Source: Eledone cirrhosa (taxonomy: Eukaryota). Taken from it: 64,000 bases of DNA. Every line of letters begins with the position of its first letter. The first letter of the stretch is position 1. Where the stretch lies: positions 301,816,001-301,880,000 of the forward strand of contig OZ024741.1 of the NCBI GenBank assembly GCA_964016885.1, written 5' to 3'. Under the pieces are notes generated by a model, which was given only the letters and a program-made list of their open reading frames with translations, ran no database searches and had not been told where the DNA came from. Below are positions 6,229-61,859 of this stretch, piece after piece. The position numbers and the translations under genes are program-made.

Positions 6229-6414
6229 ACGAAGGAAATGTGGTAAGGAACCAGGTGGACCATAACGCACCAAAGTACTCAATAGTTAGGGTAGTAGAGT
6301 GGGTAATAGGAACAAGTAAGACCCCGACGGCTGAGCTCAAGCCGTTTCGACGGCTAATTCTGGAATTAGCCGTCGAAACGGTTTGAGCTCAGCCGTCGGG
6401 GTCTTACTTGTTCC
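6229..6414. mobile_element. Mini fold-back PLE insertion (family A)
   Basis: ~80-nt tail plus two ~52-nt inverted arms centred on 6361-6362; (TA)n on both sides. Confidence 0.9.
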
Positions 6415-6498
6415 TATATATATATATATATATATATATAGAGAGAGAGAGGGAGAGAGAGAGAGAGAGAGAGAGAGAGAGAGAGAGAGAGAGAGAGA

Positions 6499-7912
6499 GA
6501 ATTCACAAGAATCAAAGCTATGTTCAAAGCATTTATTCACTTACAATTGTTACATCCAAACCTAGGCTTGGAGTCTTCGGAGCATTTACAATGCTTGTAC
6601 ATATAATTGACCTCCTATCTAACACAAGAGACATACAGATACATATATATATATTGATGTACAGTGGAGTGACATATATTATACTATACTATATTTGTAT
6701 AGCAATTCAAATTTAAAATCAAAATTAAAATGCATGTGGCAGATAACACAGATAATGCAAGAGGATAGTTCGATAATCAGATCTAGTAGATAGTATATGC
6801 GTTAATCATACATGGAGTATGCGAGTGTGTCTCATTTATATACTAGTATTGTGTGGCAAGGTGTTACATGTAATGCAAGCACTTTAAGCGGGTAAGCAAG
6901 TATTTTGATATAAAGATATAGCACTTTGTGTGGGAAATTCAATTATAGCGCTATATAATAAGGAGTAATCAACTTCCTATAGACACCTTTAATACATTAT
7001 GATAGAGTAGACTGTATTTAAAATTAAATATAAATATATAACCTTTTATGTAAGGGACTCAATTGAGGCACCATATAATGTATGTTAGAACAATGAATTC
7101 AGTTATGAGAATCAGCTAGTTACCTCCCCTTACGCATTAACTCCCCTTAACTACACACCTACTTCCGGATAATAAACCACTGTAAATTCTCGCAGAAGAA
7201 AGAACCTATTCTATAAATATGGATTAAATAACACTGAACCTCAATACGTTACAATCATTTACTACATCAAACATTCAATACGAATTCATCGTAACATGTG
7301 AAAACTATAACTTCCTTTTTCTGAATGTGAAAATGGTGGTGGATGCGAAAACTATAACTTTCTTTTTCTTTTTCTTTTTCTTTTTCTTTTTCATTTTCTT
7401 TTTCTTTTTCTTTTTCTTTTTCTTTTTCTTTTTCTTTTTCTTTTTCTGCACACATACTTTTTTGATCTATACAAAAAATACCCTCCCACTACAACCACCA
7501 TAATACTCTTGCTTACCCGCTTAAAGTGCTTGTATTACATGTAACACCTTGCCACACAATACTCGTATACAAATGAGACACACTCGCATACTCCATGTAT
7601 GATTAACGCATACACTATCTACTAGATCTAATTATCGAACTATCCTCTTGCATTATCTGTGTTATCTGCCGCATGTATTTTAATTTTGATTTTAAATTTG
7701 AATTGCTGTACAAATATAGTATAGTATAATATATGTCACTCCACTGTACATCAATATATATATATATGTATCTGTATGTCTCTTGTGTTGGAAAGGAGGT
7801 CAATTATATGTACAAGCATTGTAAAATGCTCCGAAGACTCCAAGCCTAGGTTTGGATGAAACAATTGCAAGTGAATAAATGCTTTGAACATAGCTTTGAT
7901 TCTTGTGAATTC
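6499..7912 (+). mobile_element. PLE remnant with ~400-bp inverted pLTR arms (6499-6900 / 7508-7912)
   Basis: Arms are near-identical reverse complements and each carries a hammerhead-like motif; probable tail to ~8075, then (TA)n. Confidence 0.8.
7826..7874 (+). ncRNA. Decayed hammerhead motif (inverted copy near 6538-6585)
   Basis: gct CCGAAGA c-tccaagcc-ta-ggtttgga-t GAAA caattg CA agt; the inverted copy has TA at the cleavage site but GTAA for GAAA. Confidence 0.55.
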
Positions 7913-9766
7913 TATATAACTGCTCTGTAGAACAACTGATGTTAATACATTGAGCTATTTATCTTACTGGTAATAAGGTAGTAATAAATTACTGACCTTC
8001 CCTGTTTATAGTTTAAAATATACATAACTATAAAAAGTTTAAAATATACATAACTATAAATAGTATCCTTAATATTATATATATATATATATATATATAT
8101 ATATATATATATATATATATAATATCAGAGCAAACAGCACGGACACTCTATCTCAAAATTATTTTTGAAAAGCATTTAGAAATGCGCAACCGGTAAAAAC
8201 TTAAAAACTTAAAACCACAACTGAATACTAACCCATACAATCACTAATACTCTTTTATTCCTAATCTTGTACGTATTAATTTCAACGCTTCTTCTTGATA
8301 ACTGCGTTGTTTCTTTTCAGGGACTATGTTGAAAATTAAACTTCATTTGGTCATTCCATGAGAGTATCTTGGTCGACCTATGAACTTTTCAGCCTACACT
8401 CGTATGTATTTATCTAAACATACATACTTACACACACATACATGTGTGTGTCTGTGTGTGTATCTGTTCATGTGTGTATGTGTGTGTGTGTTTGTGTGAG
8501 TGTGCATGTGTGTGTGTGTGTGTAATACATATGGCATATTTTAATGTTGTACATGATTATGCAACTACTCAGTAGACACTTTTGTTGGGTATCTCTAGAG
8601 TCTAATAGATGCAAATTATTTTCTTTACCACCTTTACAGCTATCTTTGTCTACACTTGATTGTTATTGCATCAGTGAATAATAACGAGGTTTCAACATTT
8701 ATATTTTCCAACTATGCTACGAAAAGAAGCGTTACAACAGGTTAAATGCAAATGTCTGTTTTTTTATTCAGTTTCCTCAGATACATTAAATGAAGTCAGT
8801 CAATTGAAAATACACATATAGACATTACTTCAGTTTTTTCCGGGTAGATGTAAATGATATTCAAGTGACGCTTGATGTTATTTTGTAACATTGTATTTAT
8901 TGAAAAACCAGAGAGCCATAACAATGAGGTTCTAATAAAGAAGAAAATAGTTTTGTTATTTTTTCTTTTCAATTTTGGACATCTGATGTTCGTTTTTAAA
9001 AAAATTACAGTAGAATAGAACGGAGAAACAAAAAGTAGAGAGACACAAAATAACCTCAAACATTATTTTAATATCGTTTGCATCTACACAGATGAACTTG
9101 AAGTAATACCTGTATAAGTATAGACTGTAATATTTTAGAAAGGCTCCTTCAGTTTGGAAATTTAATTTACTCTATATGTTGAAGTAAAATGACATCAACC
9201 ATTACTTAAGTTCCATTTGCATCTAGCCAGCTAAACTTGAGCTAATGTCTATATGTTTACATTGAATTCACTGACTACTTTTAAATTCGCTAAGCGAAAA
9301 CATTCGAAAATGGAAATTTGTGATTAACCTGTCGTGAACGCTGTCTTTTTGTGACAGAACCGAAACAAATAACATTACTAACTCATTTATGATGCGCCAA
9401 TACACCAATGGAATGTAGGCAATGGACGTAAGAATGGCTGATTGGCGGGGAACGTATGAATACTGATAACTTTCTCCTTTATTACATTCTCTTCTCTTTC
9501 TTTCTCTGTCCCTCCACAACATTTCAAAATGACATCTGAGTGCAACAATGTCAAACAAATATGTAAGAGTTTCATAGTTAACATAATGTACGTGTGCATG
9601 GACCCGTATTTCCCTGTAGAGTCGTAGAGGCGCCGTAGTAAAATACGGCGTTTCTTGGGCCTTATTTTAACTATGGTGTTTCTTATCTCCTCTCCAGGTT
9701 TAAACGCAGCCGATTTCTACCAGAGAAGGAGAGAATGTGATATAGAACTTCAAGAAGAAGAATCGT

Positions 9767-60642: not shown

Positions 60643-60815
60643 CCGTATTTCCCGGCGGCGTCGAAGACGCTATTTTTTTCCTAAAATAAGTCTCAAAAAT
60701 TTACTATGCGTCCTGGAGGCCGAATGTTGTTTATTATTTTTTTTTTCAAGTTTTTGGTTGTCAAAATTAGGGTGCGTCCTCGAGGACGAAGCGTCTTCGG
60801 CGCCAGGAAGTACGG
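60643..60815. mobile_element. Tc1/mariner-pogo-type MITE
   Basis: ta|ccgtatttcccggcggcgtcgaagacgc ... gcgtcttcggcgccaggaagtacgg|ta; TA target duplication. Confidence 0.8.
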
Positions 60816-61668
60816 TATATTGGAAGCGACATAGTTGAATCACTTTTTATATATTACTTACTTGGGATTTTACCAATTTAATACATGAGTTCTCAACATA
60901 AATCAATATGTTCACATATGTTTTAGAGTCTATACCAATTCATTTGATAGAGTGAAGCATAGAAATATGGGCAGCTGTTTATCAAATTTCTGAATGTGAT
61001 AAACACCTCCAAATTATATTAACATTCTACCGAAGAAAAGGTGATGAAATATTTCATCAACAACTTAAGAAATAAGACAAACACTGAGATATAAAAACAC
61101 AATCTTATTAGTTTCACGCTTAGGAGGAAGTAGAAGAGGGTTTGACATTTCGGGCATAGTTCTTTCTTCAGGAAAGGAAGAGTTCGGAGAGAGAGAAAAG
61201 GTTGGAACATTGGAGTTTGGAAAAGAAATAGTTTTAAAAAGGATGGGTGTGGTAGGCGAGTAGACTGGCATTCGGAAGTGGGGTTCGAGATGGAAAGTCC
61301 AGGTGTGTCATGGGTGTTGTTATGTGTGTACAGATGGAGTGCATTTCATGGGTTCCATTATGTGTGAGTGGTTGGTGCATCATTATCAAAAATGTGCATG
61401 TGTGTGTCTGCGTGCCTCTGTGAATTTTTCATGAAGTTCTTTTGTGTATGCACATGCGTGCATATATGTGTAAGCATGTGTTTTCTGTGGATTCTATAGA
61501 AACGACTATATATAGTCGCACGCACATACACACACACACACACACACACACACACACATATATATATATATATATATATATATATATATATATATATATA
61601 TATATATATATATATATATATATATATATATATATATATATATATGTATATATATATATATATATATA

Positions 61669-61859
61669 ACGAAGGAAATGTGGTAAGGAACCAGGTGGAC
61701 CATAACGCACCAAAGTACTCAATACTTAGGGTAGTAGAGTGGGTAATAGGAACGAGTAGGACCCCGACGGCTGAGCTCGAGCCGTTTCGACGGCTAATTC
61801 TCCGTCAGAATTAGCCGTCGAAACGGCTTGAGCTCAGCCGTCGGGGTCCTACTCGTTCC
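61669..61859. mobile_element. Mini fold-back PLE insertion (family A)
   Basis: 80-nt tail plus two ~53-nt inverted arms around spacer ccgtc (61802-61806); (TA)n flanks. Confidence 0.9.

Follow-up and report, generated by a model that had tools for sequence, protein, structure and literature searches.

The window analysed here, a 64,000-nucleotide (nt) stretch of contig OZ024741.1 of Eledone cirrhosa (assembly GCA_964016885.1, positions 301,816,001–301,880,000, forward strand), is animal genome DNA, rich in (TA)n and dense in nested Penelope-like elements (PLEs). We describe head-to-head, two-armed insertions of these elements, in which one 3′ end carries a tail and the other does not, and a predicted hairpin, doubled in the leaders of related elements, that lies at a fixed distance from both kinds of end.

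Family A is assigned, by motifs and protein similarity, to the Hydra clade of endonuclease-positive PLEs, as defined in the text of Craig et al. 2021 (PMC8557442). Its protein has 41 relatives (721–970 amino acids, 33–45% identity) and carries the DKG-to-DKT change (VHSDKT in copy A4), a CxCx5C linker (CNCPDRSIC) followed by a YIG motif, and, at the C terminus, a GIY-YIG domain. Specifically, CCHH is absent, and CxxC (CNLCSEE), LNKK and CxH (CKH), set around conserved E and N, make up the Hydra-clade endonuclease layout. The N terminus is missing from all window copies, and RWK/RWR is found in homologues with 36–43% identity. At the motif level, a predicted hammerhead with a U3-A8 core and stems I–III lies near the 3′ end of six A arms. 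A length below 3 kb, a tendency of the clade that is not diagnostic, is exceeded by the truncated A4 arm (3,065 nt), which has a long 3′ region. Families B, C and E and the copy A5 match the same Hydra-clade proteins with the same layout (tblastn). The linker of family D (frame 31191–32546) differs from the Hydra type and is presumably Neptune-like. Pfam named none of the PLE frames of the window; Rfam gave, among the 150 matches listed, only microsatellite-driven microRNA matches below cut-off and no hammerhead; and no relative was found in viral contigs.

The arms of family A stop at two sites. The original prediction placed six tail-less ends between TCC and TA (6414, 33027, 38568, 50652, 54316 and 61859) and five tailed ends about 80 nt further on (6229, 34288, 46590, 46671 and 61669); all six tail-less ends are confirmed, with TACATG preceding the TA run at 54316, and each tailed end lies exactly 80 nt further on. 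All five complete A insertions have one end of each kind, with the 3′ ends facing outward, and the asymmetry proposed for four further pairs is likewise present at 20957–27108, 39352–42788, 54748–55253 and 55276–58737 (tails of 138, 90, 60 and 114 nt). Three additional two-armed insertions were found, H (1653–1830), G (6501–8075) and J (27503–27647). In total, every one of the 12 two-armed insertions counted in the window is a mixed pair (0.5^12 = 0.0002 if ends are independent; P = 0.004 when the eight families are each counted once). The count leaves out three inverted pairs that are not readable, one of 37 nt (3763/5759) and two old ones (8719–9352; 11498–11755). Among the 24 ends of the 12 insertions, 22 abut (TA)n, one abuts (TC)n and one abuts TA followed by (CA)n. 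The suggestion that the coding arm is often the tail-less one fails: the long or coding arm is tailed in ten of the 12 and tail-less in two (38568 and 50652), plus the incomplete copy. The left end of that sixth A copy, A5 (right end 54316), was not found in the window, and single-armed copies can carry either kind of end. Reading 46590 and 46671 as the ends of one insertion was rejected, each arm sharing private variants with its other partner.

The tail-less end had been attributed to the hammerhead, on the grounds that it falls 17 nt after the predicted cut, where an extended stem I (ggaa/ttcc) would end. The 17-nt distance holds in all six A copies but not elsewhere: the corresponding values for five other families are 39, 41, 50, 70 and 128 nt, so the hammerhead is not the ruler. 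The extended stem I is set aside as the cause of the tail-less end, since the distance from cut to end is not kept across families and its pairing is broken in A3, which ends in CTCC. The family A core corresponds to a U3-A8 variant described in the accessible text of PMC4209133. A strict hammerhead scan missed family A, and a relaxed scan found A but not B, C, E, G or D, where cut sites were placed by eye. The predicted fold of the family A end is not more stable than shuffles, and the hammerhead is not its minimum-energy fold. Family A uses two of the 11 TA sites downstream of the predicted cut. Two more minus-strand PLE ends in the window, 3021–3600 and 27159–27425, have canonical CTGATGA hammerheads (cores 3168 and 27365).

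To compare leaders, we used DNA of relatives, comprising 77 metagenome loci and 14 host-DNA loci in bacterial bins (loci carry L numbers below), all encoding Hydra-type proteins. Several GTDB bacterial bins (L078–L091) contain PLE-rich animal host DNA as contamination. In these relatives a repeated motif, RCTC-Y-loop-R-NN-GAGY-RCT, sits between the hammerhead and the start codon. Exactly two 3′ anchors of the motif are present in 27 of 35 scorable leaders, one in four, three in two and none in two, and the two leader motifs are spaced 59–83 nt apart. When leaders are clustered (n = 30), two strict modules are found in 22, one in six and none in two; among the six single-module clusters, two sequences are cut just before the second module and the others are degenerate. 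The module was found in leaders and not in coding sequence, with 39 occurrences in 6,273 leader nt versus none in 128,722 nt of open reading frame (ORF).

The module has the covariation of a stem. The first inner pair, which was unused in the search, is paired in 48 of 50 modules (C-G in 36, T-A in 12; shuffle mean 39.4, reached by 0 of 2000 shuffles), the second in 35 of 50 (shuffle mean 19.3, 0 of 2000) and the third in 29 of 50 (14 of 2000), and the excess of inner pairing appears only with a 2-nt bulge. Furthermore, the closing stem changes in pairs: GCTC/GAGC in 82 modules, ACTC/GAGT in seven, all in the window, and GCAC/GTGC in two. The closing-stem pair probability is at least 0.5 in 45 of 70 modules of relatives; in the A2 tail, the lowest-energy fold places the pairing of the module in a shifted register.

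In the window, all nine Hydra-type tails of mapped two-armed insertions contain the hairpin, one of them as a variant. A partner strand accompanies 11 of the 26 anchors in the window, ten in mapped tails and one (5491–5532) where a probable additional arm stops. The gap between an end and the module beyond it was scored wherever the continuation of the template was visible in a second copy. Of 20 tail-less ends scored in this way, 16 lie 6–9 nt upstream of module 1, and all eight tailed ends, which come from relatives only, lie 6–9 nt upstream of module 2; the tail would therefore correspond to one module repeat. The same gap is kept at both ends and in direct tandem copies. Module 2 of the window families is predicted rather than seen because it would lie just beyond the copied part. 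The motif is visible by eye in the Hydra consensus sequences published with PMC8557442, and the words 'hairpin' and 'stem-loop' are absent from the text and readable supplement of that paper. No Rfam family matched the hairpin in the ten of 91 loci searched. A duplicated Hydra leader hairpin or PLE twin priming was not found in the literature covered by our search, outside which most subscription papers lie (for example, the PLE reviews of 2005–2006).

Table 1. Mapped insertions and sequence features of the window, in window positions
Feature	Coordinates	Strand	Description
H	1653..1830		Palindromic, two-armed; tail ~40 nt; without Hydra module
B tail module	6070..6092	+	In tail of single-armed family B copy ending at 6152
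A1	6229..6414		Two-armed mini insertion; left arm (−) 6229–6364 tailed; right arm (+) 6363–6414 tail-less; 2-nt shared junction
A1 tail module	6274..6300	−	8 nt past tail-less site
G	6501..8075		Left tail-less, right tailed (165 nt); variant module from 7922
C	20957..27108		Hydra-type; tail-less on the left, tailed on the right (138 nt; long module 26978–27061)
J	27503..27647		Tail-only left arm (−), module 27552–27579, joined to non-overlapping tail-less right arm (+)
A2	33027..34288		Tail-less left arm (−) 33027–33393; tailed right arm (+) to 34288; 4.4% divergence between arms
Family A predicted type I hammerhead	33027..33140	−	U3-A8 core variant; core 33129, cut after 33044, palindromic stem III
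A2 tail	34209..34288	+	80 nt, begins with TAT
A2 tail module	34217..34243	+	ACTC/GAGT closing stem
A3	38568..46590		Tail-less left arm (−), long and coding, interrupted by nested B1; tailed right arm (+) 44466–46590
B1	39352..42788		Hydra-type; tail-less on the left, tailed on the right (90 nt; module 42706–42728)
A3 frame	43253..44470	−	5′-truncated reverse transcriptase (RT)-thumb-GIY-YIG, Hydra clade
A3 tail module	46519..46545	+
A4	46671..50652		Tailed left arm (−) 46671–47587; tail-less right arm (+), long and coding; 1.8% divergence between arms
A4 tail module	46716..46742	−
A4 frame	47588..49383	+	Broken Hydra-clade RT-endonuclease (EN) frame (DKT, CxCx5C, GIY-YIG, CxxC, CxH)
A5	52011..54316		A-like copy, diverged; tail-less right arm ends at 54316
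D2	54748..55253		Other PLE clade; left tailed (60 nt), right tail-less; without Hydra module
E	55276..58737		Hydra-type; tail-less on the left, tailed coding arm on the right (114 nt; module 58646–58677; gap 22 nt)
A6	61669..61859		Mini insertion; left arm (−) tailed; right arm (+) 61806–61859 tail-less; 4 extra junction nt
A6 tail module	61714..61740	−

Several further structures accompany these insertions. A Hydra-type element on the minus strand (61870–64000), tail-less at 61870, is set against the A6 end and leaves the window. The segment 5438–5736 is a probable further two-armed insertion, with a minus-strand arm bearing a module-like hairpin (5491–5532) and a plus-strand arm bearing the 3′ half of a hammerhead; its arms do not align clearly. 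A 29-nt piece between two TA runs (6178–6206) is identical to the final 29 nt of the copy that ends at 2982 and is a possible tail-only insertion, and a 37-nt perfect inverted pair (3745–3805 and 5715–5769) lies 2 kb apart, with ends differing by 8 nt. A 740-nt unit between TA runs (1843–2583) has a 45-nt direct terminal repeat. Two broken non-LTR retrotransposons, 17266–20460 (zf-RVT at 19591–20406) and the GC-rich 35743–37697, are unrelated.

The two arms of an insertion come from a single source. Arms within one insertion differ by 0.3–5.2% in ten of the 11 insertions compared (0.8% in A3), with D2 at 9.2%, whereas arms of different A insertions differ by 9.6–17.9%, which argues for one source per insertion, and the arms share private variants in five of five A insertions. 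Overlap between arms reaches 2.4 kb, and 1–4 nt of shared T/TA microhomology is present at 28 of 28 ends scored. In J and in an insertion of a relative (L088:10629–10733, with its template visible nearby at L088:9060–9172), a tail-only arm is joined to a tail-less arm without overlap; the remaining 11 window insertions overlap. The tail-less arm of J belongs to the same family as the copy ending at 61870, and its tail-only arm presumably does as well. Outside the window, seven of nine readable two-armed Hydra insertions are mixed (L004, L086, two in L083 and three in L088), giving 19 of 21 with the window (P = 0.0001 against a free choice, which would give at most 50% mixed pairs).

Reads of other runs exit family A at the same sites. 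We aligned 24,652 reads of run X11 and 24,816 of run X12, both under the same species label. Among the stronger loose ends listed, 3,038 (X11) and 2,544 (X12) reads exit into (TA)n at the tail-less site, and 840 and 956 reads, respectively, of a variant subfamily exit at that same site. In the TA run behind the tailed end, depth is ~10,300 (X11) and ~11,400 (X12), although depth from restriction-site-associated DNA (RAD) is biased. Contigs of two further runs also exit the element at the same two sites. Three observations speak against assembly chimerism of the inversions: the arms differ by point changes, B1 is nested in one A3 arm only, and strand-switch joints are also present in contigs and reads of other runs. 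A pile of read ends at 34158 in X11 and X12 is interpreted as the restriction site AATT, which may create false joints at 34158–34161, and ten of the 12 strand-switch joints listed have one side at 34147–34163. Both arms of A1 and of A6 stop at the same template spot (6360–6364 and 61801–61806; reads at 34143–34163), ~55 nt before the tail-less site, in hammerhead loop 2. The spot may mark the 5′ end of an RNA or a place where copying stalls, a reading confounded by the AATT site and by a diverged subfamily.

We think it probable that programmed twin priming, set by the two leader hairpins, produces the Hydra-clade head-to-head insertions and their two fixed 3′ ends. Two RT-EN molecules would sit on the two hairpins of one RNA and cut both strands of a (TA)n run, and each DNA 3′ end would pair with UA 6–9 nt before its hairpin and be extended. 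The enzyme at hairpin 1 would thus make the tail-less arm and the enzyme at hairpin 2 the tailed arm, with a tail equal to one hairpin repeat unit, both copying the same RNA. Where the trailing enzyme stops at the point at which the leading one began, non-overlapping arms would result; where it displaces the leading cDNA, the arms would overlap. Repair would then join the two cDNA ends by 1–4 nt of microhomology. Because both starts lie in the leader, and ordinary copies end before module 2, arms bearing the ORF would require a tandem transcript, a hammerhead-closed circle, or strand transfer between pseudo-long terminal repeats (pseudo-LTRs). To our knowledge, PLE reverse transcriptases lack RNase H. 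Full-length Hydra copies (L089:5886, L059:3019, L041:966 and L019:473) start 0–13 nt before module 1 or 2, right after (TA)n and near the priming sites, which is consistent with a single round on a circular or tandem template or with simple TA microhomology. A stronger version, which we offer tentatively and regard as doubtful, holds that the element is double-primed by design, with two leader hairpins loading two RT-ENs on one hammerhead-circularised RNA that is copied twice, the two strands of a double-strand break each priming at a hairpin of their own.

Some observations weigh against programmed twin priming. Eight of the 30 leader clusters have one or no strict module, and the shuffle test of the inner pairs ignores relatedness. 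Four of the 20 tail-less gaps are outliers (E, 22 nt; L012, 2 nt; L083b, 21 nt; L053, 22 nt); the E gap would be 8 nt without a 14-nt duplication, and in L083b and L053 the seed is broken by a substitution, with gaps of 6–8 and 5 nt by eye. Among those 20 ends, five belong to A copies and three to a single other family. The second hairpin of family A is not seen in the window, which holds no full-length A copy. Outside the window, L090 has both ends tailed, on a 2.1-kb contig, L083:4193–8013 has both ends tail-less, with host flank also duplicated, and the outside count leaves out eight loci with unreadable inverted pieces. Penelope-13_HM, a published Hydra consensus with an inverted copy, may have equal ends, its position convention being unclear. 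D2 and H follow the one-tail rule without this motif; the hairpin is therefore not the general cause of that rule. The family D tails (54805–54810 and 32946–32951) have no Hydra motif and start with a short predicted stem of their own, TATC..GATA. Finally, in the accessible text on PAc, the Poseidon element of Anolis (PMC11167929), start sites are alike on both strands, with no homology to the cut DNA.

An arrangement in which two separate RNAs from one locus serve the two target strands, with hairpins setting the starts and the pairing of unlike ends due to an asymmetric protein dimer or to chance, seems unlikely to us. It would dispense with strand displacement over the overlaps of up to 2.4 kb, permits L090, L083 and the 9.2% divergence of the D2 arms, and could draw on the AlphaFold dimer proposed for PAc in the accessible text of PMC11167929. 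Against it, free choice would not give the 19 of 21 mixed pairs (12 of 12 and 7 of 9), the private variants are common to both arms, and the several non-overlapping pairs are simpler with one template. Fold-back self-priming, in the form given in the accessible text of PMC3846280, would have one cDNA or antisense template fold back and be copied into the inverted arm, with endonuclease resolution at an internal TA, as mentioned in the text of PMC8557442, trimming one end. The near-identity of the arms, the tailed long arm in ten of 12 insertions and the junctions of A1, A6, H and D2, which are palindromic or have almost no spacer, agree with this scheme, which is nevertheless distinctly unlikely: its primary arm must be long, and it cannot tail only the short arm, as in A3 and A4; the arms of J and L088:10629–10733 do not overlap; and the 6–9-nt gap is the same at both ends and in direct tandem copies. 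Near-identical arms, non-overlapping arms and tail-less long arms together thus favour twin priming on one RNA over fold-back.

The motif might instead act as DNA, as an endonuclease recognition, promoter or end-processing signal, with the ends being cuts or RNA ends at a fixed distance. The D. virilis tail is needed for endonuclease recognition of plasmid DNA (cited in the accessible text of PMC11167929), and the motif is near-palindromic, its 3′ anchor being almost equally frequent on the other strand (133 versus 112); yet the paired changes and the variable loop (8–19 nt, up to 73) fit a single-strand fold, and the ends abut (TA)n directly, as is expected of priming, so that we judge this reading highly improbable. 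To an end fixed by the hammerhead cut and its extended stem I, or to inversions that are assembly chimeras, we give almost no credence; ggaa/ttcc can pair in most A copies and the 17-nt distance is constant among them, but the 39–128 nt of the five other families oppose the former, and the point differences between arms, the one-sided B1 and the joints in other runs oppose the latter. By contrast, the part of the original prediction that invoked two fixed RT starts and priming from both target strands fits the anatomy seen here, and both processes occur in vitro in another PLE according to the accessible text of PMC11167929.

The formation of PLE tails and inverted arms is named as an open problem in the text of PMC8557442, and the sole in vitro study left the RNA signal undefined in its accessible text (PMC11167929). 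Duplicated, covarying and set at a constant distance from both ends, the hairpin offers a concrete cis signal open to direct tests, and the hairpin distance offers a simple rule for annotating the boundaries of Hydra elements. If the proposed mechanism is true, twin priming becomes a programmed step in a telomerase-related RT, as opposed to an accident in LINE-1 (L1). If double priming by design were true, one mechanism would explain the tail, the pseudo-LTR and the inverted arms of PLEs, and a portable 25-nt signal would set the start of copying.

Earlier publications on PLEs already describe inverted arms, a tail on one side and two RT start sites, and the one-of-each rule is largely a sharper count; what is new is a covarying hairpin that is doubled in the leader and keeps a fixed distance from both ends, together with the case this makes for programmed twin priming. 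Hydra-clade tails are given as 30–40 nt in the text of PMC8557442, compared with 40–165 nt here, and neither its text nor its readable supplement was found to contain the one-of-each count, a hairpin duplicated in the leader or the fixed gap reported here. The closest experimental system is PAc (Frangieh et al. 2024), which, according to the accessible text of PMC11167929, cuts and extends both target strands in vitro, uses two internal RT starts that bound its tail, requires RNA 3′ of the starts, acts on AT-rich targets and does not require hammerhead cleavage. The elements described here share its AT-rich targets and would resemble it in both-strand extension and in two starts bounding the tail. 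PAc differs in belonging to another clade and in having a 34-nt tail inside the ORF, and the same text defines no duplicated binding hairpin, reports no coupling of strand to site and does not account for inverted arms.

The likeness to L1 twin priming, as set out in the accessible text of PMC2912911, would lie in both target ends priming on one RNA, internal microhomology priming and head-to-head cDNA ends. The non-overlapping arms of J and L088:10629–10733 have the L1 geometry, which the overlapping arms of the other 11 window insertions lack. In L1, however, the internal site is opportunistic, one primer sits on poly(A) and the arms do not overlap (PMC2912911), whereas here both sites are fixed and internal and the arms usually overlap widely; the tailed ends are internal sites 6–9 nt before hairpin 2 rather than a poly(A) 3′ end. 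A confident structural model of a full-length relative (P0001, pLDDT 90) has its best fold matches, as expected, among telomerase RTs, with weak global TM scores of 0.27–0.36. In telomerase RNA, the boundary element is an RNA stem that bounds copying at a fixed distance, whereas the hairpin described here, for which protein binding is putative, lies 3′ of the start and is doubled.

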